From an uncultured virus (IMG/VR IMGVR_UViG_3300021958_000051) (lineage: Duplodnaviria > Heunggongvirae > Uroviricota > Caudoviricetes), in the IMG/VR virus record IMGVR_UViG_3300021958_000051, positions 1 through 64,000 of that record: a stretch of DNA of 64,000 nucleotides; one strand, 5' to 3'. The translations under genes and the position numbers were made by a program. Under the pieces are notes generated by a model, which did no database searches, was not told the origin of the DNA, and saw only the letters and a list, made by a program, of their open reading frames with translations. This document shows positions 3,726 to 38,533 of the stretch, in pieces (within the stretch, counting starts at the first letter, position 1; each line of letters opens with the position of its first letter).

Positions 3726-3726
3726 C

Positions 3727-9307: not shown

Positions 9308-10933
9308 TTGGCAAAAGGAACCAAAAGATCGCAAGTTCAAGAAATTATTAAATGTGGAAAAGATCCAAACTATTTTTTTAAGCATTACTTAAAAATTCAG
9401 CACCCAGTAAAAGGTCTTATCCCGTTTGATACATTTCCTTTTCAAGATGATTGTGTTGATCAATTTAATGATCATCGTTTTAATATTGTTTTAAAGTCTA
9501 GACAGTTAGGTTTGTCAACTTTAGTAGCAGCATATTCTGTATGGATGGCAATATTTCAGCGTGAAAAGAATATCCTTATTATTGCGACAAAACTAGCTGT
9601 TGCACAAAACTTTATTATAAAAGTAAAGACAATGATCAGGTCATTACCAAAGTGGTTGTTAATACCTGAGATTATTGCGAATAACAAACAAGTAATTCAG
9701 TTTAATCACGGATCTCAAATAAAGGCAATACCAACCTCAGAAGATGCAGGTCGTTCAGAAGCATTGTCATTACTTATTGTTGATGAGGCAGCTTTCGTAA
9801 GAAACTTTGATACTATTTGGACAGGTATTTATCCGACAATCTCCACCGGTGGGCGTGTTATTATTCTTTCAACTCCAAATGGTGCAGGAGGACAATATTA
9901 TCAATTGTATTCCAAGGCTGAAGCGGGTTTAAATGAATTTAATGCTATAAAACTACCTTGGGAATGTCATCCAGAACGAGATGACGAATGGTTTGAAAAA
10001 ACTACTGCAAACATGTCAAAAAAGCAAATTGCGCAAGAGTACCTTTGTGATTTTGCAGCATCAGGCGAAACGTTTTTAGATAATCAGTCTATTGAATGGT
10101 TAAGAACATGTGTACAACCTCCAATAATGAGAGACGGATTTGATAAAAATGTATGGATATGGAAACAACCACTTTCAGAACATGATTATATACTTTCAGC
10201 TGACGTCGCTAGAGGTGATTCAAAAGACTATTCTACATTTCATATAATAGATAATGCAACTAATGAAGTTGTTGCAGAATATAAAGGAAAAATTAGACCT
10301 GATAACTTTGCTGATTTAATTAATGAATTCGGACTTCGTTATAATAAAGCATTAGTTTGTCCGGAAAATAATAGCTACGGTTTTGCCACAATTCTTAAAC
10401 TATTAGAAATGAATTACCCAAGAATGTATTACAGAAAAAAGAAAAATTCTGTTTATTTAGGTTCTTATGTTCCCAAGTCTTCTGCAGACTCTGCAGGTTT
10501 CAATACTAACGGAAAGACAAGAGGCACTATTTTAGCTAAACTTGAAGAGGTTATAAGAAACAAACAATTAATATGTTATTCTTCACGCTTTTATGAAGAA
10601 CTTAAAGTTTTTACATGGCAAAGTGGTAGAGCGCAAGCAAAGAGAGGTTTTAATGATGACCTGGTAATGAGCCTTGCAATTGGTTCATGGTTATTTGATG
10701 CATCTACTGATTATAGCAAATCTTCTCGTGCAATTAATGATGCGATGTTAAGTGCATTTAGTGTAAGAAAAAACGAATACAATGATACGCCAAATGCAGT
10801 CTTAGAAGATGTTTCTTCACTTCCACCTTTTATGCCATCTGGGCGTGGTGATAGAAATAATATAAAACAAAATATTAAAGATACATTAAAACGCAGTAAT
10901 ATACCTAAAGATATGCTATGGGTAATTAAATAA
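9308..10933 (+). CDS. terL: terminase large subunit (T4 gp17-like)
   Basis: Q motif FPFQ; Walker A KSRQLGLST; Walker B LLIVDEAAF; STPNG; nuclease motifs SADVARG..KDYS and NDDLVM. TTG start with GAGGTG RBS. Confidence 0.95.
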   Translation: MAKGTKRSQVQEIIKCGKDPNYFFKHYLKIQHPVKGLIPFDTFPFQDDCVDQFNDHRFNIVLKSRQLGLSTLVAAYSVWMAIFQREKNILIIATKLAVAQNFIIKVKTMIRSLPKWLLIPEIIANNKQVIQFNHGSQIKAIPTSEDAGRSEALSLLIVDEAAFVRNFDTIWTGIYPTISTGGRVIILSTPNGAGGQYYQLYSKAEAGLNEFNAIKLPWECHPERDDEWFEKTTANMSKKQIAQEYLCDFAASGETFLDNQSIEWLRTCVQPPIMRDGFDKNVWIWKQPLSEHDYILSADVARGDSKDYSTFHIIDNATNEVVAEYKGKIRPDNFADLINEFGLRYNKALVCPENNSYGFATILKLLEMNYPRMYYRKKKNSVYLGSYVPKSSADSAGFNTNGKTRGTILAKLEEVIRNKQLICYSSRFYEELKVFTWQSGRAQAKRGFNDDLVMSLAIGSWLFDASTDYSKSSRAINDAMLSAFSVRKNEYNDTPNAVLEDVSSLPPFMPSGRGDRNNIKQNIKDTLKRSNIPKDMLWVIK

Positions 10934-10943
10934 AGAGTAAATT

Positions 10944-13037
10944 ATGGCGAATGAGAAAAAAGGAAATCTTTTTAAACAATTAACACGTCTTTTTAGAAGC
11001 GGACCGGTTGTTAAAAGAAATATAATAAAAAGTAAAGCAGATACGAGAACTAGTTCTGCTTTTGAGCAATTTAGAAAAAATCAATCACAAGTGTATTCAG
11101 CAGCTATGTCAGCATACGGTGCATATGACAGAATGGCAAGATATTCAGACTTTAGTGAAATGGAATATACACCTGAGATTGCTTCTGCTTTGGACATATA
11201 CTCTGAAGAATCAGTTGCTGCTGATGAAAACGGAAAGACATTACATATATACTCTGAAAATTCTAAAATAAGACAAATATTAACAGAATTATTCTATGAT
11301 ACACTTAATGTAGAATTTAATATGTCGCCATGGATAAGAAACTTAGTTAAATACGGTGATTTCTTTTTATTCAATGATGTACATCCAGAGCAAGGTGTAA
11401 TTAATGCATATCCTCTTCCAATATCTGAAATAGAAAGAGAAGAAGGATTCGATCCTAATGATCCAATGGCAGTTCGTTTTAGATGGGTGACGCAAGGTAA
11501 TCAAATTCTAGAAAACTGGCAAGTTTCACATATGAGACTGTTAGGTAATGATGCATTTTTGCCGTACGGTTCATCAGTATTAGAGCCGGCTCGTCGAATA
11601 TGGCGACAATTAATACTCTTAGAAGACGCAATGATGGTAATGCGTGTTGTAAGAGCTCCTGATAGAAGAGTTTTTTATATTGACGTAGGCAATGTACCAC
11701 CTGAAGACATACCAAACTATATGGAACAAGCGCAATCTTCTCTTAAAAGATCTGGCGTTGTTGATAAAAGTACAGGACGTGTAGATTTACGTTATAATCC
11801 ACTTTCTATTGATGAAGATTATTTTATTCCAGTGCGAGGATCTGATAGCGGTACAAAAATTGATCAGGTAGGCGGGCAAGGAATTACAGGCGACACAAAT
11901 GATGTTGAATATATTCAGAAGAAACTTTTTGCTGCTCTTAAAATACCTAAGGCTTATCTAGGTTATGATGAAGGTTTAGGTGCAAAAGCAACGCTTTCTC
12001 AAGAAGATATACGTTTTAGTAGAACTATTGCAAGAATTCAAAGAACAATATTATCTGAGATGAATAAAATAGCAATTGTACATTTATATTGCCACGGTTT
12101 CACAGATGAAGATCTTGTCGATTTTACGCTTAAATTATCAAATCCGTCTACTATAGCACAACAACAAAAGCTAGAATTATTTAAAGGTAGATTTGAAGCT
12201 GCGAGCAGCGCATTAAGTACGCCTGGATTGATTGACAGAGCATGGGTACAGAAAAATATTTTAAGATTAAATGACGAAGAAATAAAAGCTGTCAAAAAAG
12301 GATTACTTGAAGATAAATTAACAGATTTAGAAATTGAATCTACGCAGCTTGTTGCTCCTGAAGGTCCAGAAGGAGCTCCTCCACCATTAGACTTAAACAT
12401 GGGCGGCGGAATGCCTATGCCACCCGATATGGGTGGAGGAATGGAATCAATGCCATCACCTGACACACCTCCTGTTCCAATGCCTGGCCTAGACTTAGGT
12501 GGAGGTCCAGCACTTTCAGAAAAAAATATGTTATCAATACAAGATGATGATATGCCAATAAAGATTCAAAATAAAATCAATGCAAGTTTAAATTTAATTA
12601 ACGAAGATGATAAAAAAAATGAAAATGAAGACGATACTTTAACAGAGTTTGAAAAATGGCAAAAAGATCAAGTAGCGTCAAAAGAAGTTAGTCGTAAAAA
12701 GAAAGAAAAATATGCTCGAAAAAATCATTTATTCTCTGATAATCATTTTAGTGAGTACCAGAGAAATAGAAGACGTGAAAAAGATGTCTTTTATGATGTA
12801 CATCATGATTTAAAATCTCCTGCTAAATATAAGGCAGAAAAATTAGATGAGCTAAGTGGTGATAATATTAACATTGACGAATATTTAGATAACAAGATTA
12901 TAAAAAATGCTGAATTAACAAATAGCATTAAATCAACCTTAAAAAGATTTGACAACAATTTTGGAGTTTCGCCAAAAAATAAAATTATAATTTCTGAGAC
13001 AAAAAATTCATCAGGAGAAGAAGGAAGCAATGAGTAA
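10944..13037 (+). CDS. gp20: portal protein (T4 gp20-like) with long C-terminal extension
   Basis: LLEDAMMVMRVVRAPDRRVFYIDVGNVP, EDYFIPVRG and KLFAALKIPK are gp20 family motifs; follows terL. Confidence 0.93.
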   Translation: MANEKKGNLFKQLTRLFRSGPVVKRNIIKSKADTRTSSAFEQFRKNQSQVYSAAMSAYGAYDRMARYSDFSEMEYTPEIASALDIYSEESVAADENGKTLHIYSENSKIRQILTELFYDTLNVEFNMSPWIRNLVKYGDFFLFNDVHPEQGVINAYPLPISEIEREEGFDPNDPMAVRFRWVTQGNQILENWQVSHMRLLGNDAFLPYGSSVLEPARRIWRQLILLEDAMMVMRVVRAPDRRVFYIDVGNVPPEDIPNYMEQAQSSLKRSGVVDKSTGRVDLRYNPLSIDEDYFIPVRGSDSGTKIDQVGGQGITGDTNDVEYIQKKLFAALKIPKAYLGYDEGLGAKATLSQEDIRFSRTIARIQRTILSEMNKIAIVHLYCHGFTDEDLVDFTLKLSNPSTIAQQQKLELFKGRFEAASSALSTPGLIDRAWVQKNILRLNDEEIKAVKKGLLEDKLTDLEIESTQLVAPEGPEGAPPPLDLNMGGGMPMPPDMGGGMESMPSPDTPPVPMPGLDLGGGPALSEKNMLSIQDDDMPIKIQNKINASLNLINEDDKKNENEDDTLTEFEKWQKDQVASKEVSRKKKEKYARKNHLFSDNHFSEYQRNRRREKDVFYDVHHDLKSPAKYKAEKLDELSGDNINIDEYLDNKIIKNAELTNSIKSTLKRFDNNFGVSPKNKIIISETKNSSGEEGSNE

Positions 13038-13892: not shown

Positions 13893-14492
13893 ATGCAATT
13901 ACTCAGAGAATGGTGTGCTTTTAACATTACCAAAGAAATGATCAACGAGTCCAGAGATCGAAATGGTGGAAAGTTAATACTAAAAGGTCCGATCCAAAAG
14001 TCAAATACTCTTAATCAAAATGGAAGAATATATCCTAAAAACATTTTAGAAAGAGAGATTATGAATTATCAAAAGCTAATTCAAGAAAATAGAGCAATGG
14101 GTGAATGTGATCATCCAGATTCTTCTGTTGTTGAGCTTAAAAATGTTTCTCACGTTGTGAAGGAAGCCTATATGCAAGGTGATATAGTTTATGGAGCAAT
14201 AGAGATATTAGATACACCATCAGGTAAAATTATTCAATCATTAATTGAAAGTGGTGTGACGCTAGGAATATCTTCTCGTGGAGTAGGATCAACACAAAAA
14301 CAAGGAAATACACAAATCGTCCAAGATGATTTTCAATTAATTTGTTTTGATATGGTATCAGAACCTTCTACGCCAGGTGCTTTTGTTATGAAAGAAGGTA
14401 AAGAAATTTCTAAAAAAGAGCTTAATAAATTCTTTAACAAAACAGACAGAATTGATAGAATTTTTAATGATATTATTCGGTGGGATAAATGA
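13893..14492 (+). CDS. gp21: prohead protease (T4 gp21-like)
   Basis: NQNGRIYP, GECDHP, LDTPSGKI, GISSRGVGS and DMVSEPSTPGA motifs. Confidence 0.93.
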   Translation: MQLLREWCAFNITKEMINESRDRNGGKLILKGPIQKSNTLNQNGRIYPKNILEREIMNYQKLIQENRAMGECDHPDSSVVELKNVSHVVKEAYMQGDIVYGAIEILDTPSGKIIQSLIESGVTLGISSRGVGSTQKQGNTQIVQDDFQLICFDMVSEPSTPGAFVMKEGKEISKKELNKFFNKTDRIDRIFNDIIRWDK

Positions 14493-17971: not shown

Positions 17972-19888
17972 ATGTCTAGATCATTTAGTTTAAATCAACT
18001 GACAGAAGGAATTAGAGAACGCCACTTAGGCGCTGATTCTTCTCGTCTTGTGTCCAAGTGGACACGTACAGGTCTTCTTCGAGGACTTCAAGAAAACAAC
18101 CGCGAAAACATGGCTCGCATGCTTGAAAACCAAGCGTCTCAGCTCCTTCGCGAAGCAAACACTTTAGGTAGCGGTGGATCTGCTGGAAACATTGATGGTT
18201 TTACCAATATCGCTTTTCCAATCGTTCGTCGAGTATTCGGTGGATTGGTAGCAAACGAATTAGTTTCTATTCAACCTATGTCTTTACCTTCCGGACTTCT
18301 TTTCTATCTTGATTATTCATATGGAGCAGATGTTGGTGGTGATGGAACTGGTGATGGAAACACAGATGCTACTTATGCTTCAACTTACAATAGAGGTGAT
18401 TCTCTTTATGGAAATCCTGGTGGTTCTAGTATCCGTACTGGTGCATCTGCAGTTGGTGGTCAATATGATCTTGCAGGTTCAGGATATTCAAAAGTTCACG
18501 GAACTTATAAATTGAATGAAGGTTTGGCTCATATTGGTAAATTTGGAACCGGTGCTTCTCAATCAGGTGCAAATGGTGTAGCTGGTGTAGAAGGTGCTGA
18601 CGGTAAATTACTACAATTTGACCCACAGATCATCAAAAGAATTAATGATGGCGACGCAGAATATGCATTCTTGGTTGCTTCAGCTTCAGTTCTTGTTGAA
18701 GATGCTGCAACTGGACGTTCATTAGACCCAACACAAGTTAAGCAAATTGCTTTATTTAGTGCTCTTGGCACTACAAATGGATTTACAGTACCTCCTGCTA
18801 CTGTTCAAGGTGGAAGCAATGTATTGAACGTTCGTCGCCTTAATCAGTTAGGTACTATGGCAGGTGCACAGGACGCAATTACATTCACTCCTGATCCTCT
18901 TAAAGCACTTACTGATCTTGACGCAGGTATTCTTTTTGTAATGGAACTTGCTGATGGCGCAACTCCTGACGCGGATGCCGCTGGATTGGCAGCTGTAACT
19001 AATCTTACTGCTTCTTTCCCAGTTGCTGATTCAGTATCAGCTGAAGGTGGAACTGGTGGAACTCTTGTTATTCCAAGCTTTGAGTCAGATTTTGCAGCTT
19101 CTCCAAGCCCAGTTATTCCTGAGATTGATATTAAGATTGAGTCTATCGCGGTAACAGCGACCACACGTAAGTTAAGAGCTCGTTGGTCTCCAGAACTTGC
19201 GCAAGATCTTAATGCTTATCACTCAATGGATGCTGAAGTTGAATTGACTCAGATTCTTTCTGAGCAGATTGCACTTGAGATCGATCGTGAGATTCTTAAT
19301 GATCTTCTTACAGAAGCAAAAGCAGCTAACTACTACTGGTCACGTGCTCCTGGTAAATTCGTTAAGAAGGATACTGGTGTCGTTGCATCTAGCACTATTG
19401 GACCTAATTTCACGGGTACAGTTCGCGAATGGTACGAAACTCTTGTTGAAACCATTATCGACGTTGCTAACGAAATTCACAGAAAGACTCTTCGTGGAGC
19501 AGCTAACTTTATCGTGGTTTCACCTGAAGTAGCTACTATCTTCGAAGCTTCAGTTCTTTACAAGCCTTCTATCAAGATTGATGGACAAGGACAAGTTGGA
19601 ACTCCTTTCTCTATCGGTGCAGAAGCTATTGGATCTCTTTCAAATCGCTTTACGGTTTACAAAGATCCTTACTTCCCACGCAACAAGATCCTTGTAGGAT
19701 ACAAAGGTGGATCATATCTTGAGTCTGGATACGTCTATGCTCCTTATGTACCACTCATCGTTACTCCTACAATCTTCGCTCCTGAAGATTTCACACCAAG
19801 AAAAGGTGTAATGACTCGTTACGGTAAGAAAATGGTACGTGCCGATTTCTACGGAACAGTTACATGCCTTGACATGGACGTGATCTAA
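17972..19888 (+). CDS. gp23: major capsid protein (T4 gp23-like)
   Basis: FPIVRRVF, VSIQPMSLPSGLLFYL, TRKLRARWSPELAQDLNAYH, EIDREIL, YAPYVPL and FTPRKGVMTRYG; highly biased codon usage. Confidence 0.96.
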   Translation: MSRSFSLNQLTEGIRERHLGADSSRLVSKWTRTGLLRGLQENNRENMARMLENQASQLLREANTLGSGGSAGNIDGFTNIAFPIVRRVFGGLVANELVSIQPMSLPSGLLFYLDYSYGADVGGDGTGDGNTDATYASTYNRGDSLYGNPGGSSIRTGASAVGGQYDLAGSGYSKVHGTYKLNEGLAHIGKFGTGASQSGANGVAGVEGADGKLLQFDPQIIKRINDGDAEYAFLVASASVLVEDAATGRSLDPTQVKQIALFSALGTTNGFTVPPATVQGGSNVLNVRRLNQLGTMAGAQDAITFTPDPLKALTDLDAGILFVMELADGATPDADAAGLAAVTNLTASFPVADSVSAEGGTGGTLVIPSFESDFAASPSPVIPEIDIKIESIAVTATTRKLRARWSPELAQDLNAYHSMDAEVELTQILSEQIALEIDREILNDLLTEAKAANYYWSRAPGKFVKKDTGVVASSTIGPNFTGTVREWYETLVETIIDVANEIHRKTLRGAANFIVVSPEVATIFEASVLYKPSIKIDGQGQVGTPFSIGAEAIGSLSNRFTVYKDPYFPRNKILVGYKGGSYLESGYVYAPYVPLIVTPTIFAPEDFTPRKGVMTRYGKKMVRADFYGTVTCLDMDVI

Positions 19889-23961: not shown

Positions 23962-25185
23962 ATGGAATTAACCGAGGCACAACTTCGTTTTTTAATTCGT
24001 GAGGTTATACGCAAAGTAAAGGGTGGGTGGAAAGTTTACCCTAAAAAACCTCGCAAGGGAGAGAAGCGTCGTCGTGCTTTGTCAAAAAAACCTTTAAGTT
24101 ATAAACGTGCATTGGCACAACTTCGTGCAATTGAAAGAGGAAAAAGTTTAAAGGAAGGTCGTGAACATACAATAGTATCCGGCGATTATCTTGGTAAGAT
24201 AGCGAAAAAATATGGCGTAACAACTAGTCAGATTCAAAAAGCAAATCCTGATTTAAATCCTAATTCATTACAGCTAGGTCAAAAAATAATAATTCCTGAT
24301 GCTTTAAAGCGATTAAATAAAGATTTAAAACCTAGTAAAAAATTAATTGACTGGATGAAATACGAAGAAGGAAAAGTTAATAGATTAGGAGTGGCCACGG
24401 GAGAACCTTATCTTGAATCTTATGATGACGGTGTAGGAAACTTGACAATAGGTTACGGTCGCAATCAAAAAAGTCAAAGAAAACAAACAATAGATACGGG
24501 TTATGCAGAAAATTTACTTAAATCTGATTTGAGCGATGCTGCTTCCTTATTGCAACAGTCAACTAAAGATTCTGTTAGCGAAAAAATAACAATTCCTTTT
24601 AAGTTAGATCAAAATCAATTTGATGCATTAACTAGTATAATTTTTAATGCAGGTAGAGGCGGATATATTAAGACGGGTTTACATCAAAAATTTATTAGTA
24701 AAGGAATAACATCAGGCAGTGAGTTTGAAAAAGCCTTTTTAGAAGCTAGAACTAGTAAAAAACTAGGTGGTTTAAAAGGAAGAAGAAAAAGAGAATTAGA
24801 AATATTTAAAAACAATAATTATCTTAACAAAAAAGATGATGAAAAAAGTGTTTTAAAAGAAGGTGATCCAAAAGTAGGAACAGGTAAAAAACCAAAAGGA
24901 TCAGGTCGAAGGTTGTATACAGACGAAAATCCTAAAGATACAGTTCCAGTAAAGTTTAGAACGGCTTCAGATATTAGAAAGACATTTTCGCAAAAAAGTT
25001 TTAAATCAAAATCACATAATAGGCAGTCTCAAATAATTAATTTGGTGCATCAAAGGGTTCGAGCAGCATATCAAAATGCTAAAGATCCGGATACAAAAAA
25101 GAGATTGAAAAAAGCATATGATTATGCAAAAAAACGAAAAGCAGCTAGCAAAAAGAAAACTCAAAGAATGAGAAAGAAAAAATGA
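23962..25185 (+). CDS. multi-module protein: leader + basic module + LysM + GH24-type lysozyme + basic C-terminal module
   Basis: LysM HTIVSGDYLGKIAKKYGVT...NPDL...LQLGQKIIIP; lysozyme YEEG...YDDGVGNLTIGYG, QNQFDALTSIIFNAG and GLKGRRKRE. Confidence 0.85.
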   Translation: MELTEAQLRFLIREVIRKVKGGWKVYPKKPRKGEKRRRALSKKPLSYKRALAQLRAIERGKSLKEGREHTIVSGDYLGKIAKKYGVTTSQIQKANPDLNPNSLQLGQKIIIPDALKRLNKDLKPSKKLIDWMKYEEGKVNRLGVATGEPYLESYDDGVGNLTIGYGRNQKSQRKQTIDTGYAENLLKSDLSDAASLLQQSTKDSVSEKITIPFKLDQNQFDALTSIIFNAGRGGYIKTGLHQKFISKGITSGSEFEKAFLEARTSKKLGGLKGRRKRELEIFKNNNYLNKKDDEKSVLKEGDPKVGTGKKPKGSGRRLYTDENPKDTVPVKFRTASDIRKTFSQKSFKSKSHNRQSQIINLVHQRVRAAYQNAKDPDTKKRLKKAYDYAKKRKAASKKKTQRMRKKK

Positions 25186-26315
25186 AAATTACAAAAAAAC
25201 AATTAAATTTACTTGCTGAGTCTGTTATTCTTGACTCAAAAAAAGAAGATACGATAGAAGATCTGGTTGAAAAAAGATTATCAATACAAGAAAAAAGAAT
25301 CCAGTTGTTAAAAGAAGGATATAATCTAGAATTGATAAAAGAGTTTAACGTTCAAGTGTCCGGTCCTAGAATCGAAACAGATGATATAACAGTTGAAGCT
25401 GGCAATGTGTCGATAGAGACAAATTTTGGAAAATGGGCAACTTACCTAGGCATAACAAAAGCAGTTTGTGCAACTGCAGTTCATATTGCATTGATATCTG
25501 CAGGCTGGGAAGGCGTATTAGCAATATTAATACCTGTTGCAATTCCTGTTTTAACTAGCCCAGTTATTATGGGTTCAATTGCATTGTTTTTATCTCGTTA
25601 TTCGTTTTTTAGAAAAATAGCAGGATTTTTATTTAAAATGCTAATAGGAAAAAAGAATTATCAAAGAATTAACAATATGATAGATAACATAACTAATATT
25701 ATGATGAGTTCAACTGATAATGCAATTGAAAAGAAAGATGCATTAACTTTGTTTGTACAATCAGCCGGTTATGTTTTAGGACAACCAGAATTTAGAAAAA
25801 AATTAAAAGAATTGGCATATGCTTACATGTCAAGAAATAAAGAAAAAGTTAAACAAATCATGTCTGAATTAGATGTGATGGTTAGAAGTTTTGCACCAAG
25901 CCAATCTTCTTTAACTTTAGATGTTAAAGAAGACGAATTAACATTACCAGATAATTCACCTAAGCATGATGATATTGAAAATTTAGAAGCTGAATTAGAT
26001 AAGTCTGAACTAATACAAGAAAAAAGAAAGAGTAAAAAGAAAAAGGTTGATTATAAAAAATCCTATAAGAAATATCATAGTTCAAAAAAAGCTAAGCGAG
26101 AACGTGCACAAAGAAACGCAGCTGGACGAAAGATTAAAAATGAATTAGGGATAGAAATACCAAAGGGATATGAAATTGATCATAAAACAGCTATAGCGCA
26201 CGGCGGATCTAACGATTTATCAAACTTAAGAATTATTCCTCGCAGCAAAAATAGGGCATTAGGCCAAAAAATAACAACTCGAAAAAGAAAAAAGAACGGG
26301 AGCTATAAAAAGTGA
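25182..26315 (+). CDS. leader + hydrophobic segment + C-terminal HNH domain
   Basis: MKITKKQLNLLAESV; hydrophobic helices in the middle; HNH EIDHKTAIAHGGSNDLSNLRIIPRSKNR. Confidence 0.8.
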   Translation: MKITKKQLNLLAESVILDSKKEDTIEDLVEKRLSIQEKRIQLLKEGYNLELIKEFNVQVSGPRIETDDITVEAGNVSIETNFGKWATYLGITKAVCATAVHIALISAGWEGVLAILIPVAIPVLTSPVIMGSIALFLSRYSFFRKIAGFLFKMLIGKKNYQRINNMIDNITNIMMSSTDNAIEKKDALTLFVQSAGYVLGQPEFRKKLKELAYAYMSRNKEKVKQIMSELDVMVRSFAPSQSSLTLDVKEDELTLPDNSPKHDDIENLEAELDKSELIQEKRKSKKKKVDYKKSYKKYHSSKKAKRERAQRNAAGRKIKNELGIEIPKGYEIDHKTAIAHGGSNDLSNLRIIPRSKNRALGQKITTRKRKKNGSYKK

Positions 26316-27451
26316 AATTATCTATAAGTAAATTAAGGCAATTAATTCGAGAAAGTTTGGAAAAAAGAATCGCTTTTGCTAACGATATGATTAAATTAGG
26401 ATTAACTCCGGAAGAAGCAGAAAAAAAAGGTGTTTTTAACATAAATCAGTTCGGAATGCCAGGGAAAAAAGAATTATCACCTTCAGGAAAATCTTTATTT
26501 GATGATAAAAAAGCAATATATGCAACTAAAGATGTTGAAAAAGAAACAACTTATATGGGAAAACCTTATAAATACATTGAATCTGAAGAAGCGTTATTTA
26601 TGGGTGCGATGGAAGCAATTAGAGCTGCGACTAAAAGAGGTAAAATGATGAAGCAGCTTTTTAGAAAATATGTTGATCCCAACTTTATGAATCAATTAAT
26701 TTTAATTCATTATGCTTCACCTGACCAGGTTTTAAAAAATATTAAGGCACAAAAAGGTAATTATGAATTAAGTTCTGTTGCATTAGCCCCTGAAGATTTT
26801 ACCAAAAATAAAATCCAAGTGTTAAAAACAGCAATGATTTTAGATGGACATATAACTTATTTTGCAAACAATCAAGATGACGTATATTCTGGAAAAGGTT
26901 CTGACTATGTTCAGGCATTTTCTTCTCAAAAGGGATATGAACCATGGATCGAAGGTAATCCTGATCTGCTAGACTGGGAAGATGAAGTGATAGAACGTGG
27001 AAGAGCTGAAAGGCCCTACGCAGGAACAGATAGAACTAAATCATCGGGTGTTAATAAAACAGTTGTTAATATTAGAGGTGTAGAGAGATTTAAATCTCCT
27101 GCAATGTCCAGGTCAAATTATTTGCAAGATCCGGGTTTCGAACATTTTAAACAAGCTCCTGATGCACCTCGAGGTGTACCTCAAACTTCACGTGGCGAAC
27201 CACCTGTTGTTTTAGACAAAGAAGACTATTTGCCTAGATTTGATCAAGCAGCCGGCTCAGATTCAGCAATACCTGGAAATGAAGCGTTAGTTGATAATTG
27301 GTCTGTGAAAGCAATTATTTTAAATCATGGTAAAGAAAACGAAAAATATGAAAAAATGTTTCGTGATGCAGGATATCAAGGACAGATAATGACATTTGAC
27401 GAAGCAGTTGCACAAAAATCATTATTAATAAATAAAGGACATAAAAGATGA
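26312..27451 (+). CDS. hypothetical protein with shared leader
   Basis: GTGA overlap; MKLSISKLRQLIRESLE. Confidence 0.75.
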   Translation: MKLSISKLRQLIRESLEKRIAFANDMIKLGLTPEEAEKKGVFNINQFGMPGKKELSPSGKSLFDDKKAIYATKDVEKETTYMGKPYKYIESEEALFMGAMEAIRAATKRGKMMKQLFRKYVDPNFMNQLILIHYASPDQVLKNIKAQKGNYELSSVALAPEDFTKNKIQVLKTAMILDGHITYFANNQDDVYSGKGSDYVQAFSSQKGYEPWIEGNPDLLDWEDEVIERGRAERPYAGTDRTKSSGVNKTVVNIRGVERFKSPAMSRSNYLQDPGFEHFKQAPDAPRGVPQTSRGEPPVVLDKEDYLPRFDQAAGSDSAIPGNEALVDNWSVKAIILNHGKENEKYEKMFRDAGYQGQIMTFDEAVAQKSLLINKGHKR

Positions 27452-28122
27452 AAATAACAAGAAGTGCATTAAGAAAAATAATTTTAGAAGTTGTTGTTGC
27501 AAGTAATGATACTAAAGAAAAAGTAGAAGATTTAGAAAAAAGTATTAAACAGGACAACCCAGAAGCGTCTGACGAAGATATTGATGATGCAATTAATAAA
27601 TTAACAAAAAAACAAATGCAGGAAGAGCTTAAGCGTTTGTCTTATGTAAGCAAAGAACAAGGCCATACATACGGACTAGAACATCTACCTGATCAATATG
27701 ACCAAAAGAAAGCAGATGATATCATAGGACACACCTGACTGACTCATGTTCGGAAGAAGGGTTCTTCTTTAAATGAAGTTGGTTATGTTCTTTGGCACTC
27801 TTTAAATGAAAGCGGTCACGTTGCTGTTTACGATGTTGAATGGCCTGATGGGACGATTGAAAGAAATATACCTGCACGTCTTTTAGAAAAAGTAAAAGAC
27901 AGCAATGATAATGTTGACGAACATGATGAACATGGTGTCGTTGGTCATGAAGAAGAATCGTTATTAGGTGAAAGAAAATACAAGAAAAGAAAAGGTAAAA
28001 AGAAAAAGAAAGCATCAAAGAAAAAGCCTAAGTATTGGTATTTAGGTGGTTATGGGATAGACCATGATCATGATTTTGCCGATTTTGGCGGCGACTTTGG
28101 TGGTGATGGAGGCGGAGAATGA
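27448..28122 (+). CDS. putative selenoprotein / UGA-readthrough protein (224 aa, UGA at codon 97)
   Basis: The frame stays open for 127 codons past TGA 27736-27738 (GHT-U-LTHVRKKG...LWHSLNESGHVAVYDVEWPDGTIERNIPARLLE...). It has no internal ATG/GTG/TTG and ends TGA 28120-28122 in an ATGA overlap with the next gene. A SECIS-like hairpin follows the UGA. Confidence 0.75.
27741..27779 (+). promoter_or_regulatory. bacterial SECIS-like stem-loop
   Basis: GGAAGAA (27752-27758)-GGG-TTCTTCT (27762-27768); lower stem TCAT/ATGA; G-rich apical loop 20 nt after the UGA. Confidence 0.6.
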
Positions 28123-28781
28123 AAATAAAAAGAAAAGATCTCAACATGTTAATTGAAAGATTCCTAAATGAAGAAGGAACAGATCCTAAAGGTGAAACAG
28201 TTGATGATGTATTGTCTGATGAGTTGGAGCAAACAGAAGTTGGTGATACTTTTATGGCTAATCAAATGAGACAACATGGCGGTAGGCAGCCAATGAGTCC
28301 TGAGAAAAGAGCACAAGCAATCACAGATTTTAGGAAAGGCAGTGATCGAGGACAATTTCCTCCTTTAACATTTGGGCCAGGCGTTGACGAAGAAGGAAAT
28401 TTGGAAGGTGATAAATTTACAACTGTTCATGATTACCATGATCCGGATCCTTATGATCAAGCTGCTGTTAGAAGATATAAAAAACAACATTATTTAGGAC
28501 CGAATGAAAAGTCTGTTGATGACCCTGAAATTACAATGCAAGGTCTAGGCGACTTTGATTTTGATGATGAAGATACTGAAGAAGATTTAAGATATCAGGA
28601 ACAAGAATTTTTTCAAGACGATGAAGATACAGAAGATTCGTATGAAGTTGAAGGCCCTAGTGTAATTACTTATGAAGACGAAGAAGGCGGAGAAAGAACG
28701 TTTATAGACGATGAAGAAGTAACGCCTGGTTATAATAAAGGAATAATTAGCAGGTTGCGAGATTATTTTTCAAAAAAATAG
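28119..28781 (+). CDS. highly acidic hypothetical protein with shared leader
   Basis: MKIKRKDLNMLIERFLNEE; D/E-rich; GGAG RBS lies in the tail of the readthrough ORF. Confidence 0.75.
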   Translation: MKIKRKDLNMLIERFLNEEGTDPKGETVDDVLSDELEQTEVGDTFMANQMRQHGGRQPMSPEKRAQAITDFRKGSDRGQFPPLTFGPGVDEEGNLEGDKFTTVHDYHDPDPYDQAAVRRYKKQHYLGPNEKSVDDPEITMQGLGDFDFDDEDTEEDLRYQEQEFFQDDEDTEDSYEVEGPSVITYEDEEGGERTFIDDEEVTPGYNKGIISRLRDYFSKK

Positions 28782-31959: not shown

Positions 31960-34900
31960 ATGGCAGAGAGAACCTTTAGATCCCCCGGAGTATTTGAAAG
32001 AGAAATAGACTTAACTGAGAGAACAACTAGTGTTTCTGGGACTCCAGCTGGTGTTGTAGGAACCGCTGAGAAAGGACCAGCATTTGTTCCAAAAACAGTT
32101 GGGTCTATAAATGAGTTTAAAAATAAGTTCGGAAAATTATCAGCAGAAAGATTTGGTCCTTATGCTGCAGAAGCATTCTTAAAAAACCAAAGTGCACTGA
32201 CTTATGTTAGAGTATTAGGTGCAGGTGCAAATTTAACAATTACAGATATACAAAATACAGCGGCAAAAGGAACAGTAAAAAATGCAGGTTTTCGATTAAG
32301 CGGGTCATTACCTACAGTTGCTCCAAGCGGAGAAGTAAGAGATGTTGGTGCTGTACAATTTCTTGCTGGTATTCATCAAGTTGATTCAGCTGAAGCAGCT
32401 GGTTATCCTATCTTTACTGATAATCAATCAAAAAGTCAAACTGACGTTCAATTAATTCGTTCGATGTTTTTATTAGCATCCGGTGCTAGATTAGAAGTAA
32501 TGGATGAAAATGAGTTTTATCCTGCGGGAGGAAAAACTGCAAATGATTCCGCACATATTAGATCTTATGACGGGACCCCTGAAGAAGGTATGTTCAAATT
32601 AGTTCTTTCATCTGCATTAGGGACTACATTTGGTAACGATGAAGGTAAAGCTGGTATTCGAATTTATACTGCTTCTTTAGATCCTAACAGTGTACATTAT
32701 GTTGGTAAAATATTTAACAAGAATCCAGACCGTTTTCAAGACGAACAACATCTTCTTTATGCAGATTTCCCAATGGAATCTGAAATTGCTAAAATTAAAA
32801 AAGACAGCACAAATGATGTTGTTGCTGTGGTATCCGGATCTCAAAATACATCATCAACTTCTGGAGATACGTCATTATACTTTAGAGAAATATTTGGTTC
32901 CTTTAATACAAGATATCAAACTGCTAAGTCGACATATTTTATATCTCAACCTTATGGTGATAAAGAATATGATTTATTTTATTTCGAAGCTTTAGACGAT
33001 GGCGAAGCAGGAAATCAAAGAGTTAAAATATCGATATCAAATATAAAAAGATCAACAGACTCAAATGATCCATACGGAAGCTTTACAGTTGAAGTAAGAG
33101 ATTATTATGATTCAGATTTAGATCCTGTTGTATTAGAAAGATATCCTCAATGTACCTTAAATCCTGGTGATGAAAACTATATTGCTAACAAAATTGGTGA
33201 TCTTAAAGAATACTACAATTTTGATGCTGAGTCTGAGTCTGAGCAAAGAATTAATGTATCAGGAAAAAGACGCAATCAATCAAATTATGTAAGAATTATC
33301 ATGTCAGCTGATGTTGAAGATGCAAAAATTCCTCAAGATGCAATACCTTTCGGATTCAGAGGATTGCCTGCATTAAAAACGTCTGATACATTAACTGATT
33401 CTACAACAACTTTAGCTTTAGGCGCAGATCAAAAAAGATTAAGTTTTGCAGCTGGAACAATGAGTAATAACTTTTTAGAATATGCAATTGTACCTCCAGT
33501 TCCATTTACATTTAAAGCAACAAGAAATAAAGCTAATTCTACATCTACATTTACAGGTTTCCCTGGCGACTTGGAATTAGCTGATTCCAGAATTTATTGG
33601 GGTATTAAAAATTCGCGAGTTCCTGTATTAAGCAAAACGACAGATCCTTTATTAAGATCAAATGCGGCATCAGATTTAAGAAACGAACTGATCGATTCCT
33701 ATAGTAAAATGTTAGGGATTGCAAAACTAGATGCTTTAGTCACTGGTTCGGCAGCAGATGAATTTCACAATAATAAGTTTACATTAGCAAAAGTTGCTTT
33801 AAATAATCAAAGCGATGCAACCGATACTCTTGAAACTGCTATTTCAACTGAAATTACAGGAACTATAGACTCACACATCAGAGAGGCTGCTTACATCAGA
33901 AATGCGTCTATTGTATCTCCTAATTATACCATTAATGATAAAGGAACATACACACGTCGTTTAACTCTCGCATCTCTAGCAGCTAGTAATTCAGCTACTA
34001 AGTTTAATCAATTCACTAATTACCTTAAGTTTACAAATATTCTTTTTGGTGGTTTTGATGGTGTGAATATTCTTGATAAAGACCAACGTTATATCAATGA
34101 TAAAGCAAGTTCACAAGATGCAGGAGGAAAAGCAGCTGGAGACGCATTAGGTTATCAAAATTTAAAGTCTGTTTCTTCACCTGGTGCTGGTACTGAGAAT
34201 AACGCAGTTAACTCGTATCGTGCAGGTATTAAAATAATAACTGATGAATTAGAATCAAGAGTTAATATTGTATCTGTTCCAGGTATTAGAGACTCAAACG
34301 TAACAGATTATGCAATTGACAAAGTTAAAGAGTATAGCAAAGCAATTTATTTAATGGATATTGCAAACTATGATTCTAGTACTAGTCGTCTTTATGATGA
34401 TTCTACAAATAGACCTAGCGTTAGAAAGACGATTGAGCAATTTGAAGGAAGAAATATTGATAACAACTATGTTGCAACATATTTTCCTGATATTATTAAA
34501 CTATATGCACAAGAAGATGGAGGTACAGTTAATTTACCTGCTTCTATTGCGGCGTTAGGTGCTTTAGGATATAATGATGCAGTTTCATTTCCTTGGTTTG
34601 CACCAGCTGGTTTTAATCGAGGTGGTTTAGAAAACGTTATTAATACAAAAGTAAGATTAAATACTGAGGATCGTAATTTACTTTATGAATCTAGAATTAA
34701 TCCAATTGCTAATTTCAATATTAATGACTTTGTAATTTTTGGACAAAAAACACTACAAAAAAGCAGATCAGCATTAGATCGAGTTAATGTAAGAAGAATG
34801 TTATTGGAAGTCAAGAGAATTGTTTCAAATGCAGCAAACAATATTATTTTCGAACAAAATGTAAAAGCTACTAGAGATGGCTTTGTATCGGTGGTGACAC

Positions 34901-35091
34901 CACAACTTGCATTAATTCAGTCCCAGCAAGGAATTGAACAATTTAGAGTTATAATGAATGATACAAATAATACTCAGGCTGATATTGAGCAAAATAAACT
35001 AAACGGAAGAATTGTTTTGGTTCCAACAAGAGCGGTTGAGTTCATTGCACTAGACTTTATTATAACAAATTCAGGTGTAAGTTTTGAATAG
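31960..35091 (+). CDS. gp18: tail sheath protein 1 (gp18-like)
   Basis: FRSPGVFEREID, GTAEKGPAFVP, WFAPAGFNRG, RINPI, GQKTLQ and DRVNVRRML. Confidence 0.93.
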   Translation: MAERTFRSPGVFEREIDLTERTTSVSGTPAGVVGTAEKGPAFVPKTVGSINEFKNKFGKLSAERFGPYAAEAFLKNQSALTYVRVLGAGANLTITDIQNTAAKGTVKNAGFRLSGSLPTVAPSGEVRDVGAVQFLAGIHQVDSAEAAGYPIFTDNQSKSQTDVQLIRSMFLLASGARLEVMDENEFYPAGGKTANDSAHIRSYDGTPEEGMFKLVLSSALGTTFGNDEGKAGIRIYTASLDPNSVHYVGKIFNKNPDRFQDEQHLLYADFPMESEIAKIKKDSTNDVVAVVSGSQNTSSTSGDTSLYFREIFGSFNTRYQTAKSTYFISQPYGDKEYDLFYFEALDDGEAGNQRVKISISNIKRSTDSNDPYGSFTVEVRDYYDSDLDPVVLERYPQCTLNPGDENYIANKIGDLKEYYNFDAESESEQRINVSGKRRNQSNYVRIIMSADVEDAKIPQDAIPFGFRGLPALKTSDTLTDSTTTLALGADQKRLSFAAGTMSNNFLEYAIVPPVPFTFKATRNKANSTSTFTGFPGDLELADSRIYWGIKNSRVPVLSKTTDPLLRSNAASDLRNELIDSYSKMLGIAKLDALVTGSAADEFHNNKFTLAKVALNNQSDATDTLETAISTEITGTIDSHIREAAYIRNASIVSPNYTINDKGTYTRRLTLASLAASNSATKFNQFTNYLKFTNILFGGFDGVNILDKDQRYINDKASSQDAGGKAAGDALGYQNLKSVSSPGAGTENNAVNSYRAGIKIITDELESRVNIVSVPGIRDSNVTDYAIDKVKEYSKAIYLMDIANYDSSTSRLYDDSTNRPSVRKTIEQFEGRNIDNNYVATYFPDIIKLYAQEDGGTVNLPASIAALGALGYNDAVSFPWFAPAGFNRGGLENVINTKVRLNTEDRNLLYESRINPIANFNINDFVIFGQKTLQKSRSALDRVNVRRMLLEVKRIVSNAANNIIFEQNVKATRDGFVSVVTPQLALIQSQQGIEQFRVIMNDTNNTQADIEQNKLNGRIVLVPTRAVEFIALDFIITNSGVSFE

Positions 35092-35125: not shown

Positions 35126-38100
35126 ATGGCAGAGTTAACATTTAAATCAGCTGGCGTTAGCACAAGAGAAATAGATTTATCCCAACCTTCTGTTTCCTCA
35201 CCTTCTGGAGTACCTGCAGGGGTAATTGGAACAGCTAATCAAGGACCTGCTTTTGTACCCATAACTGTTGGAAACTTTAATGATTTTACAACTCTTTTTG
35301 GTGCAACTGACGGTGCTAAATTTGGCCCTTTAGCAGTTAATGAATGGCTTAAAAATGCAGGTTCTGCCACTTTCGTTAGAGTTTTAGGCGCAGGAAATGG
35401 TCAACAAAGAAATACCACAACAGGTATCGTAACAAATGCAGGTTATTTTGTAGGTGATAGAAATCTTCAATTAAACGGTACAATTGGAAACAACCCTTAT
35501 GCAAATTCAGGTGCAGGAGCAGTAAAAGGAAGAACTTACTTCTTAGGCTGCTTTATGTCAGAATCAAATGGTTCAACAATATTTTCAGATGCTGGAATAC
35601 AAGTTAATAATGCGTTTGCATCTACAACATTAACAATTGGAAATGATACAACTTCGACTAATCTTCTTGCTGAAAATGATACATTAACATTAATAGATGC
35701 AACAGGAACATCAAAAACTTTTGAGTTTCTTGACAATGGAAGCTCTGCAACTGGCGATAATATTGCAGTCGAATCAGCTGCTGCAGTTACAGCTGATACT
35801 GGTGTAACGCTGGCTACAACTTTAAGTACAGTAATTTCATCAAACTTATCAATATCAGTTGATCGTACAGATAATGTATTAACGCTTACACAAAATATCT
35901 TTGGTCCAATTGGCAATACCTCATATTCAGATAGTGTTGCAGGCGAAGATAATCTAACAGGGTCTAATTTTTCTGGTGGCGCTGGAGGCGCTGCTCCTAT
36001 TCTTCGTGGTGTTCTTCTTGCACCAAGTGGAGTTATTCTTCATCTTAGCGGAAACTCAGCAGCAAATGGTTCTGATGCACCAGGTACTTCAGATACAGCA
36101 GCATCTGCGGCTGGCGTCATCATGGGAAGAGAAGGTTCTTTAACCGGGTCTATTGATTTAAGATCTGGAAAAGAAGAATTTGTCATGCTTTTAAATGGTC
36201 ATAAAAATACGTCAGCATATCCTAATGTTTTGACTGCATCTTTTGACCCTATTGCACCTAACTACCTAACACGTGTTTTAAATACTGATCCTTTAAAACT
36301 TGAAAAAGCAGGGCATTTACTTTATAATCACTATCCACTTCATGGTAATGTTGCAACGATTACAGGATCAGGAGTCGTTTCTGCAGGGCATTTTTCAAAA
36401 GGTTCAGCACTTGGTAATCATGAAGATATCGCATTTTTGTTGTCATCTTCTTTAGGGAGAGCTGCAGCAACAGATGGAAGCATACCTGATTATGAAGATT
36501 TTCAAGATAGATTCTCTCATGCTGAAACTCCATATGTAATATCACAGAAATTTGGTAATCGTCCTTATAATCTATTTAAAATTGTTGCTTTAAGTGCAGG
36601 TGCAGGATTTGCTGATGATTTTAAATTTTCAATTACAAATATTGTTAGATCAACTTCAAATGTTAATAAATTTGGTAAATTTGATCTCTTGGTCAGAAAA
36701 GGCGGAGATAATGATGACGAACAAGTAGTTTTAGAATCATTTAGAGGATTAGATCTAGATCCGGATTCAGTTAATTATATCGGTAGAAGAATTGGTGATC
36801 AATACGCAAAATTTGATTTTGATACTTCTTTAGATTCTCAAAAAATCGTTGTTGAAGGAACACATCCAGTTCTTTCTAGATACATAAGAGTGCAAATTCA
36901 CCCAGATGTTGCTAATAGAAATATTCCTGATGAATCTTTACCTGTTGGTTATCGAGGACCAAAACACTTAGTAACGTCAGGTTCTTTATTATCTGGTGAA
37001 TCTGATGGTCTTTATTCTTCAACTGATCTATTACAAAGAATTATTGAGCCTCCTGTACCTTATCGAGAAAATATAACTTTAGGTACCGGAATCAACAAAA
37101 AGGTTAATTCAAATCTTTTCTGGGGTGCTCAATCAACATTAAAAATTAATGCAACACAACCTAACTTAATTACAACTAATGACGCATTAGCTTCTTTAAC
37201 TCCTGTCACACAAAATTATCAGGTACATTTTCCAACGCATCGAAAAGATACAACTGCAGTTTTTGTAGGTGATAATGAAGGCGCTGCTAATGTTAACGGT
37301 TCTGTTTTAGACGCAGATTTGTTTAACTATAATAAGTTTAGTTTGGAAAATATTCAAGTTAGAACCGGTTCCAATTCAGATGCAACGCAAACAGCAGCGG
37401 ATTCTGAATATTGGGTTAGTGCTTCTTATGTAAGAGATGGTGTGATCGCTGTCAATGCTACTAATAAAACTCGTGCATTCAAGGTAGAAGATTTAGACGT
37501 AGTAGCAAATAGAAAGTTTGCTAAGTTTACATTCTTTGCACAAGGTGGTTTTGATGGAGTTAATATATTCAATCAAGAAAAAGCTAACTTATCAAATAAC
37601 GCTGCCAAATATGAAATTGATGATTCGACAAATCAAGGTGGAACTTCAGGACCTACAATTGCAGCATATAGAAAAGCAGTTGATATTATGGGTTCAACTT
37701 CAGATACAAATATTCAATTATTAGCAATACCAGGAATTAGAAACTCTGTTATTACAGATTATGCAATTTCAGCAGTTGAAAATAGATTTGATTGTTTATA
37801 CTTAATGGACATTGAAGAAAGAGATCAGGTTAACTCTGTGATTACATCTTCAGTTCAAACACCTCACGTTAAAAATACAATTAACAGCTTTAAAGATAGA
37901 AACCTTAATACATCTTTTGCAGCTGCATATTTCCCTGACGTTACCATAACAGATCCTGGTACAAATACATTTGTAAGTGTTCCTCCGTCAGTCGCAGTAT
38001 TAGGAGGTTATTCATTCAATGACAAAGTATCAGCGCCATGGAACGCCCCCGCTGGAAAAAGTAGAGGCGCTTTAAATGCTGTGGAAACAACATCGGTTAA

Positions 38101-38533
38101 ATTAAATCGATCAAACCTTGATGATTTGTATGATGCAGATATTAATCCGATCACTTCTTTTCCTGGTACTAATGTTATTATATGGGGACAAAAAACATTA
38201 CTCTCGAATGATTCTGCATTGGACAGAGTTAATGTTAGAAGATTACTTATAAGTGTTAGAAGATCAATTAGAACTATTGCTAATTCTCTCTTGTTTGAAC
38301 CAAATAGAGAATCAACATTGAGTAAATTTAGTGCTTTAGTTGAGCCGGTTCTTCAAAATGTTCAAGAAAGAAATGGTGTTTCAAGATATAAGGTGGTAAT
38401 TGATTCTACTACTACAACACAAGCTGATATTGAAAATAATACAATAAGAGGCAAAATATATCTTCAACCTACAAGAACAGTTGAGTTTGTTGCTTTAGAT
38501 TTTGTTGTTACAAATTCTGGTGCAGAAATTTAA
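35126..38533 (+). CDS. gp18: tail sheath protein 2 (gp18-like paralog)
   Basis: FKSAGVSTREID, GPAFVP, WNAPAGKSRG, DINPI, WGQKTL and DRVNVRRLL. Confidence 0.93.
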   Translation: MAELTFKSAGVSTREIDLSQPSVSSPSGVPAGVIGTANQGPAFVPITVGNFNDFTTLFGATDGAKFGPLAVNEWLKNAGSATFVRVLGAGNGQQRNTTTGIVTNAGYFVGDRNLQLNGTIGNNPYANSGAGAVKGRTYFLGCFMSESNGSTIFSDAGIQVNNAFASTTLTIGNDTTSTNLLAENDTLTLIDATGTSKTFEFLDNGSSATGDNIAVESAAAVTADTGVTLATTLSTVISSNLSISVDRTDNVLTLTQNIFGPIGNTSYSDSVAGEDNLTGSNFSGGAGGAAPILRGVLLAPSGVILHLSGNSAANGSDAPGTSDTAASAAGVIMGREGSLTGSIDLRSGKEEFVMLLNGHKNTSAYPNVLTASFDPIAPNYLTRVLNTDPLKLEKAGHLLYNHYPLHGNVATITGSGVVSAGHFSKGSALGNHEDIAFLLSSSLGRAAATDGSIPDYEDFQDRFSHAETPYVISQKFGNRPYNLFKIVALSAGAGFADDFKFSITNIVRSTSNVNKFGKFDLLVRKGGDNDDEQVVLESFRGLDLDPDSVNYIGRRIGDQYAKFDFDTSLDSQKIVVEGTHPVLSRYIRVQIHPDVANRNIPDESLPVGYRGPKHLVTSGSLLSGESDGLYSSTDLLQRIIEPPVPYRENITLGTGINKKVNSNLFWGAQSTLKINATQPNLITTNDALASLTPVTQNYQVHFPTHRKDTTAVFVGDNEGAANVNGSVLDADLFNYNKFSLENIQVRTGSNSDATQTAADSEYWVSASYVRDGVIAVNATNKTRAFKVEDLDVVANRKFAKFTFFAQGGFDGVNIFNQEKANLSNNAAKYEIDDSTNQGGTSGPTIAAYRKAVDIMGSTSDTNIQLLAIPGIRNSVITDYAISAVENRFDCLYLMDIEERDQVNSVITSSVQTPHVKNTINSFKDRNLNTSFAAAYFPDVTITDPGTNTFVSVPPSVAVLGGYSFNDKVSAPWNAPAGKSRGALNAVETTSVKLNRSNLDDLYDADINPITSFPGTNVIIWGQKTLLSNDSALDRVNVRRLLISVRRSIRTIANSLLFEPNRESTLSKFSALVEPVLQNVQERNGVSRYKVVIDSTTTTQADIENNTIRGKIYLQPTRTVEFVALDFVVTNSGAEI

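Follow-up and report, generated by a model that had tools for sequence, protein, structure and literature searches.

Which amino acid, if any, is inserted at an in-frame UGA codon that interrupts a gene in the head-structural region of an uncultured tailed phage? The gene lies on the plus strand at positions 27448..28122 of a 64,000-nucleotide stretch of DNA (hereafter the window; G+C content 33.5%) that constitutes the first 64 kb of the 72,233-b IMG/VR virus record IMGVR_UViG_3300021958_000051 (Caudoviricetes). It comprises 224 codons, of which codon 97 is the UGA in question (27736..27738, plus strand), and homologous proteins span this position. In our view, a bacterial-type selenocysteine insertion sequence (SECIS) probably directs the incorporation of selenocysteine (Sec) at this codon by the machinery of the infected host. 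Three marks of a bacterial selenoprotein gene come together here, a UGA at a site used for cysteine, continued translation beyond it, and a stem-loop with a G-containing loop that is located within the coding region at a fixed short distance. The gene would thus give rise to one 224-residue protein with Sec at codon 97, the hairpin at 27752-27768 would act as the SECIS, and tRNA-Sec, SelA, SelB and SelD would be supplied by the infected host.

Standard annotation of the locus ends at TGA 27736-27738 and yields an open reading frame (ORF) of 96 amino acids (27448..27738). Past this codon the same frame remains open for 127 further codons up to TGA 28120-28122, which is part of an ATGA overlap with the next gene (start 28119). 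An earlier note on this DNA had reported the end of the ORF, the open frame, the overlap and the coordinates of the hairpin, and all of these are confirmed on the sequence. The same note had regarded a free-standing UGA as anomalous for this genome; six of the seven other plus-strand TGA stops in the window are embedded in ATGA or GTGA overlaps, and a single one, at 54728, is free-standing. No in-frame ATG, GTG or TTG is present among the 127 codons after the TGA, and the sole start-like codons are CTG at 27739, ATT at 27856 and ATA at 27868 and 28057. The entropies of the three codon positions amount to 0.43/0.33/1.47 upstream of the TGA and to 0.72/0.23/1.28 downstream of it outside of the hairpin. 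The two sides of the TGA thus agree in their codon-position pattern, which is evolutionary evidence that the downstream part is under coding selection. Likewise, the downstream differences of a co-occurring strain in run X7 reside mostly at third codon positions.

The TGA itself is present in independent assemblies; the earlier note had asked for its confirmation in raw reads. The stretch is found in 24 public runs of 24 studies (estuary, marine and seawater metagenomes), and no RNA data set is listed among them. Contigs of four other public runs cover TGA 27736-27738 with no difference listed. The gene is identical in three other IMG/VR contigs, and the TGA is kept in three more at 86-88% protein identity.

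At first sight, protein databases appear to contradict the assignment of this position to Sec. A word-indexed protein search retrieved 77 homologues, and position 97 is tryptophan in 21 of 21 aligned database homologues, embedded in an invariant IIGHT-W-LTHV. Tryptophan in homologues had been put forward in the earlier note as an objection to its own proposal. This objection fails on the DNA level. Several of the W-form proteins end with '...GGGEWK', that is, the terminal TGA is also given as W; the tryptophan in the databases is therefore a product of gene calls with a TGA=Trp code. Every W form for which DNA was recovered has TGA. In the main clade, this applies to 36 of 36 viral loci bearing the motif (37 loci were retrieved with the family profile), which comprise 31 distinct 111-nt sequences and reach down to about 37-43% protein identity. 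Three further 'W' subfamilies also have TGA throughout, namely L120 on a 288-kb contig, L122-L126 (5 loci) and a fourth subfamily related to P0146, in which TGA is present in 80 of 80 metagenome loci (79 from a tblastn walk; in the 80th, L170, the alignment is offset and the TGA is situated 12 nt further on).

An exhaustive profile search of 1.84 billion representatives resulted in 145 matches, 46 of them at E up to 1e-10. Many stop exactly one position before the TGA or begin shortly after it because they are code-11 gene calls on TGA-containing genes. Among the 34 database matches that span the site, 18 carry Cys within a motif H-[DSNA]-C-[AP]-x-H and 16 carry 'W'. On DNA, the Cys forms are represented by 27 domain copies from 26 viral loci (TGT in 22, TGC in 5). 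The complete codon tally for 149 copies is TGA in 122, TGY in 27, and neither TGG nor any other codon in a single case; it omits L066, where the motif is not recognisable, and L127, a partial 44% match. The DNA of P0109, P0117 and P0195 was not recovered (the search with P0117 gave no locus), and smaller subsets of the alignments A5 and A6, both too diverse, were used for the locus searches. A TGA conserved in relatives (122 of 122 loci) and a cysteine at the aligned codon in 27 copies are what the earlier note had suggested looking for.

In a tree of 115 domain sequences the TGA forms cluster, with 74 TGA forms and two database 'W' rows in one group, and a separate group of four TGA forms is located among Cys forms. 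The tree has four changes, and its starred branches force at least two changes between Cys and TGA; it is a quick version with weakly supported deep forks and gives no direction of change. In our view, the family is specific to phages and combines a conserved His-x-(Cys/Sec) motif with a small beta-barrel that follows it; one large branch of the family would have replaced Cys by Sec. Within the TGA forms, an 'HK-U-MKEG' subgroup (L143-L207) stands out by ATG right after the TGA in most loci, replaced by ACG in L170, L197 and L202 and by AAG in L204; its members lack the second His of the motif, which is otherwise found three residues past U.

The second line of evidence is provided by the hairpin, a SECIS-like element on the plus strand at 27752..27768 with a 7-bp stem GGAAGAA/UUCUUCU and a GGG loop. 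Its arms GGAAGAA (27752-27758) and TTCTTCT (27762-27768) flank the loop at 27759-27761, such that the hairpin begins 13 nt and its loop 20 nt past the UGA. In the main clade, the 7-bp stem is predicted by RNAalifold unaided, and not a single pair is broken in 31 distinct sequences. The varying pairs are distributed as AU19/GC10/GU2, CG17/AU14 and GU13/AU10/GC8, with compensatory changes at two pairs. Covariation amounts to 0.352 versus 0.172 for shuffled alignments, and none of 500 shuffles reached a value as high. When the 3' arm was slid as a control, 42-62% paired, as compared to 94% for the main-clade stem. The compensatory changes alter both encoded residues (e.g. RKKGSS to KRKDSA), so that at this place the peptide follows the RNA. 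Inside the hairpin, third-position entropy drops to 0.29 versus 1.28-1.47 elsewhere, and codons are used that are rare in the genome, such as AAG (19% of Lys), CGG (1.2% of Arg) and CTG (2.4% of Leu). In run X7, a T to C variant at 27768 replaces the G·U pair that closes the hairpin by G-C. A search of Rfam gave no match at the hairpin at E up to 10 and five chance-level matches elsewhere.

The four subfamilies share the arrangement. Main-clade stems (GGAAGAA or AGCGGAA, loop GGR) follow after a spacer of 13 nt in the window; in L120 the spacer is 12 nt, the stem AAGAUUCA and the loop GGA; in L122-L126 the respective features are 14 nt, GUGGAA and GUC, and in the P0146 type 11 nt, AAAGCUG and AGUU. 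The stem sequences are unrelated among the subfamilies, and their distance from the TGA is alike. In the P0146 type, three pairs are changed on both sides among 64 distinct sequences, and covariation (0.248 versus 0.110 shuffled) was again matched in none of 500 shuffles. When a hairpin is defined by a stem of at least 6 bp, a loop start 18-20 nt after the codon and a G in the first two loop bases, it is found at 110 of 122 TGA sites (36/36, 1/1, 5/5 and 68/80 in the subfamilies in the order given) versus 0 of 27 Cys sites. A TGA followed after 19-21 nt by a GGR loop on a stem of at least 7 bp occurs once among the 3138 TGA trinucleotides on both strands of the 72,233-b record, and this one is the site studied here. 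A second fit, TGA plus 21 nt plus a GGR loop, was noticed on the minus strand of contig G001 at 101472; it has 20 open codons upstream and is probably due to chance. The conservation of the hairpin with compensatory changes, that is, covariation in two large subfamilies, speaks for the role assigned to it in the earlier note.

Other structures and mechanisms were considered for the same region and rejected. A small hairpin enclosing the UGA (columns 28-32/40-44) consists of four pairs that are invariant at codon positions 1 and 2 of conserved residues and a fifth that is broken in 9 of 31 sequences. An extension of the lower stem that appears in single-sequence folds is dropped by RNAalifold, and one of its pairs would be a C·A mismatch wherever the sequence has CAC (13 of 31). 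A ribosomal hop from ACN (Thr96) to ACN (Thr99) is at odds with the synonymous variation of codons 98 (CTG/CTA/CTT) and 99 (ACT/ACA/ACG/ACC), which behave as translated codons.

The prototype of a bacterial selenoprotein gene in which a SECIS within the ORF is read by SelB is fdhF of E. coli. The genes studied here resemble bacterial selenoprotein genes in that UGA takes the place of Cys in homologues and is followed just downstream, within the coding sequence, by a stem-loop with a G in its apical loop. The distance between UGA and loop is likewise similar: in the fourth subfamily, loop G and U occupy positions 23 and 24 counted from the U of UGA, which we take to be the numbering in use for fdhF. 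In the canonical SECIS example given in the BSepDB paper, a GGC loop of 3 nt lies 17 nt past the UGA (PMC13326102), and the selenoprotein criteria applied in this work are drawn from what PMC1794560, PMC2398784 and PMC13326102 say on the subject. In contrast to bacterial selenoprotein genes, the gene resides in a phage head-structural module, its family is uncharacterised and its hairpins are very short (6-8 bp). Furthermore, the motif is His-x-Sec, whereas the usual redox motifs in known selenoproteins as described in PMC1794560 are UxxC, CxxU and TxxU.

A number of observations nevertheless weigh against Sec. The hairpins are short and their single-sequence energies modest (-9 to -11 kcal/mol, z -0.9 to -2.8). 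That of the window is unremarkable in this respect (-9.3 kcal/mol, z -0.91, with 36 of 200 shuffles folding as well), so that its significance derives from conservation, not from energy. The hairpin of L174 is no better than shuffles (z +0.2), 12 of the 80 fourth-subfamily loci have only 4-5 uninterrupted pairs, and loop sequences vary between subfamilies. Within the 'HK*MKEG' subgroup, the ATG next to the TGA would also fit a stop followed by a restart. Sec forms exceed Cys forms by 122 to 27 in a sampling that was seeded from Sec forms, whereas Sec forms are rare in most known selenoprotein families according to PMC1794560. Neither tRNA-Sec at the family cut-off nor selA, selB or selD was found with family models on five related phage records (135-284 kb, one rated 100% complete), which also lack a suppressor tRNA with a UCA anticodon; the same holds true for tRNA-Sec and sel genes on the window's own phage, the record of which is about 54% complete. 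In addition, the samples containing the stretch are oxic estuary and sea water, and the nearest cultured relatives by capsid protein infect Flavobacterium, Microcystis and Rhodothermus.

The best matches of the tRNA-Sec model on the five related records are ordinary tRNA-Ser and tRNA-Leu genes as identified by ARAGORN. The window contains no tRNA gene, in agreement with the earlier note, which had stated that no tRNA-Sec is encoded there. ARAGORN detected none in G000, G001 and G003 either, and 141 kb of the window's phage are without any tRNA. As no Sec machinery was found on the phage records searched, we infer that the machinery must come from the host. A scan of genome contigs with the family profile, intended for host inference, gave no match. 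The GroEL of the phage matches one Clostridia metagenome-assembled genome at 41% identity, which is uninformative on the host. As background, selA, selB, selC and selD are reported from each of the 84 complete genomes of Actinomarina, a lineage abundant at the sea surface, and selC is reported as absent from the 135 Pelagibacter genomes covered in the same source (10.64898/2026.04.03.716425), which links the phages studied here to no host.

Among the alternatives to Sec insertion, programmed read-through of the UGA survives best, and we consider it unlikely. A near-cognate tRNA would insert a standard residue such as Trp under stimulation by the hairpin, and 96- and 224-residue products would arise without any selenium. 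In the main clade, the UGA is always followed by C, although CTN codons are a minority among Leu codons in the genome (about 34%), and UGA-C is a weak terminator in E. coli. The coupling of hairpin and TGA, taken for itself, would fit stimulated read-through, and no Sec machinery was found on the phage records searched. On the other hand, 27 distant copies have Cys and none of 149 has TGG, such that relatives with a sense codon are without Trp. Moreover, the UGA is located inside the most conserved motif of one domain and not at a domain boundary, and the short product would in many relatives be a peptide of about 45 residues consisting of the leader and half of the motif. The spacing of 11-14 nt and the G-containing loop fit SECIS geometry, and to our knowledge no hairpin-stimulated read-through signal has been described in bacteria. 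The A1 protein of phage Qbeta is the obvious point of comparison, since there, too, a phage structural gene is extended past a UGA. In that case, the stop is situated at a domain boundary and Trp is inserted, and neither Cys homologues nor a SECIS-like hairpin accompany it. Sec is preferred over stimulated read-through because Cys and UGA alternate, because TGG is found in none of 149 copies and because the UGA sits in the middle of the most conserved motif.

We regard it as very improbable that UGA is a sense codon in all genes of the host (code 4 or 25), or that the phage has a suppressor tRNA gene in the part of its genome that is not sequenced, with Trp or Gly being inserted without any signal. 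Gene callers picked a TGA=Trp code for many homologues, and only about 54% of the window's phage is sequenced. Most TGA stops of the window are dictated by ATGA/GTGA overlaps, and behind every one of the TGA stops there is a TAA or TAG within 1-10 codons, so that a UGA-reading host would do little harm. A general change of the code is nevertheless contradicted by the 72-kb record, where 160 TGG codons are faced by a single credible in-frame TGA, and by its 141-kb and 115-kb relatives, where the sole credible in-frame TGA again resides in the same gene; other 'internal TGAs' belong to antisense frames that contain several of them, or immediately precede a start codon. Five relatives, one of them rated complete, have no tRNA with a UCA anticodon, a conserved hairpin would be unnecessary, and relatives carry Cys rather than Trp or Gly.

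Hardly credible is a scheme in which the UGA is a true stop and the beta-barrel is made separately by termination-reinitiation at the next codon, with the hairpin holding the ribosome. It could draw on the ATG directly after the TGA in most 'HK*MKEG' loci and on the CTG in the window, which the earlier note had named as a possible start of independent translation. Against this idea, the 127 downstream codons contain no canonical start, and no start codon is conserved: the next codon is CTG in 23, CTA in 6 and CTT in 2 cases in the main clade, the third subfamily has GCG at this place, and some 'HK*' loci have ACG or AAG. Furthermore, Cys forms are continuous proteins, and the His two residues upstream forms one conserved motif together with the downstream residues. 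A recent nonsense mutation, a pseudogene or an assembly error, to which the truncated 96-residue ORF of standard annotation might point, is refuted by the presence of the TGA in 122 loci of many samples, in 24 runs of 24 studies and in contigs of four runs as well as by protein-level conservation of the downstream frame, and has a negligible probability.

Sec insertion by the host thus stays our favoured reading of the gene. The proposal of the earlier note, a phage selenoprotein made with host Sec machinery, is supported by the TGA, the Cys forms and the hairpin, and it is from these that we infer Sec itself. The peptide around the codon reads ...IIGHT-U-LTHVRKKGSS... and contains the motif H-T-U-L-T-H (27730..27747, plus strand), whose first His, two residues ahead of U, does not vary within the family. 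Three residues, H39, G56 and H61 (domain numbering), are the same in all of 115 family members, and C/U41, G67, Y72, D73 and H106 are nearly invariant. It is a reasonable guess from this sequence pattern that the His/Sec(Cys)/His/His residues form a metal or redox site, as probably do the His and Sec residues of the protein in the window.

Directly after U, AlphaFold models predict a small beta-barrel domain of the SH3/Tudor/KOW-like type (27745..27891, plus strand), with a pLDDT of 75-86 for the beta-barrel core and of 61 for the whole model. Fold matches obtained with VIA-align are generic small beta-barrels of this kind only (best Z 4.9) and point to no function, and Foldseek gave no match at E up to 0.001. 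Tudor/Agenet repeat proteins match the family profile. No family for the protein was found in Pfam, PHROGs or NCBIfam, a sequence profile search of the PDB gave 0 matches at E up to 1, and among GenBank phages neither blastn of the region nor tblastn of the read-through protein yielded a match. In the ESM Atlas, P0158, a natural Cys-form relative, is linked to viral hypothetical clusters only. The protein ends with a Lys-rich and then Gly/Asp-rich tail (27964..28119, plus strand) that is variable or missing in relatives. In one relative (G003:C1:84507-85739, L034/L015), the Sec domain is fused to a far longer N-terminal part in a frame of 410 codons with the TGA at codon 283; in other relatives only the leader precedes the domain.

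This leader, MKITRSALRKIILE (27448..27489, plus strand), is a putative capsid-targeting propeptide that would be cleaved by a protease, and it is common to neighbouring genes. Altogether five adjacent genes with starts at 23962, 25182, 26312, 27448 and 28119 share it, the three upstream ones (23962..27451, plus strand) encoding a LysM-lysozyme, an HNH-tailed protein and a protein assigned to no function, and the downstream one extending over 28119..28781 on the same strand. The pattern is M-[KE]-[IL]-x-x-x-x-L-x-x-[LI]-[IL]-x-E or, in a narrower form, M-K-I-T-x-x-x-L-x-x-I-I-x-E, and ends with [LI]-x-E. A sixth leader gene at 60812 has 81% nucleotide identity over 42 nt (60812-60853).

The head module of the window is T4-like. 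It consists of the large terminase (9308-10933), a gp20-type portal (10944-13037), a T4-type (gp21-type) prohead core serine protease (13893..14492, plus strand; PF03420, E 3e-26) and a gp23-type major capsid protein (17972..19888, plus strand), with a head-tail adaptor and two giant sheath paralogues encoded downstream of the head genes. The sheath paralogues are arranged in tandem and unusually long (31960-35091, 1043 aa, and 35126-38533, 1135 aa). A prohead protease of the T4 type would process leader-bearing head proteins. In T4, the internal head proteins IPI-III and Alt carry a capsid-targeting sequence that is cut by the gp21 protease. The phage studied here is alike in possessing a head module with portal, gp21-type protease and gp23-type capsid protein, and the short conserved leader ending with [LI]-x-E that a run of adjacent small genes has in common would be the counterpart of the T4 targeting sequence. 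A capsid-targeting role of the leader is plausible by this analogy, and the combination of leader and T4-type prohead protease suggests that we are dealing with an internal head protein that enters the capsid. We know of no selenoprotein among the T4 internal head proteins.

A 141-kb contig is near-identical to the record of the window and is rated only 54% complete, and the genome is therefore of giant-phage size, with a full length of about 260 kb to be expected. In the broadest version of our proposal, marine giant phages would build a selenoprotein into their capsids by way of the SelB pathway of the host, place Sec in a His/Sec centre of an internal head protein and deliver this protein along with their DNA to the next cell they infect, where it might, for instance, bind metal, act as a redox effector or counteract defences; we give this extended scenario an even chance.

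Among viruses, selenoproteins are known from some that infect eukaryotes, with the glutathione peroxidases of molluscum contagiosum virus and fowlpox virus as cases. These are similar to the present case in that a viral gene with a UGA for Sec depends wholly on the Sec machinery of the host. They differ in having the SECIS in the 3' untranslated region and in being captured host enzymes, whereas here a phage-specific protein of a structural module would be made with a bacterial-type SECIS. According to PMC8310308, UGA is redefined as Sec by a few viruses, and in the selenoprotein families examined in a 2021 survey, viral sequences were few or absent. In the literature searched, no bacteriophage selenoprotein is reported. 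Neither 'phage' nor 'virus' appears anywhere in the main text of the 2026 BSepDB paper (PMC13326102) or of a 2022 review on prokaryotic selenoproteins, and the four supplementary files of the GOS selenoproteome paper contain none of five motif strings of the family.

If the UGA is indeed decoded as Sec, phages exploit the host pathway for the 21st amino acid for a protein of their structural module. Sec insertion has been described in cells and in a few viruses of eukaryotes, and a bacteriophage case would be new, in the form of a selenoprotein family that is widespread in sea water (at least 122 loci) and whose genes are systematically broken by standard gene callers or mistranslated with Trp for UGA. 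Such minimal SECIS elements, with stems of 6-8 bp and a GGR, GUC or AGUU loop at 18-20 nt from the UGA, would extend the range of signals readable by a bacterial SelB. The phages would be restricted to Sec-decoding hosts, which would turn the gene into a sequence-based marker of host range, and the pattern His-x-Sec ... His ... His would point to an unexplored selenium site in a virion protein.

Several further features of these genomes were noticed. In the window, PAP2 phosphatase and Fic/DOC domains are joined in one ORF (3700-5019), and a 1043-aa ORF at 5481-8612 combines calcineurin-like (Mre11/SbcD-type) phosphoesterase and Rad50/SbcC-type ATPase domains. The same phage also encodes a GroEL-type chaperonin (L021:4943-6562), a sigma-70 factor (L021:7276-8022), a DnaE-type Pol III alpha (L020:4848-8360), an Fe/Mn superoxide dismutase domain (L020:13289-13990) and a pair of histidine kinase and response regulator (L022:1128-2562). 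Genes resembling transfer-messenger RNA (tmRNA) were detected by ARAGORN on G001, which belongs to the same phage, outside of the window at 117285-117652, and on L067 (G006) at 630-993, with the tag peptides ANNNKHFALAA and ANDNVEYDYALAA.

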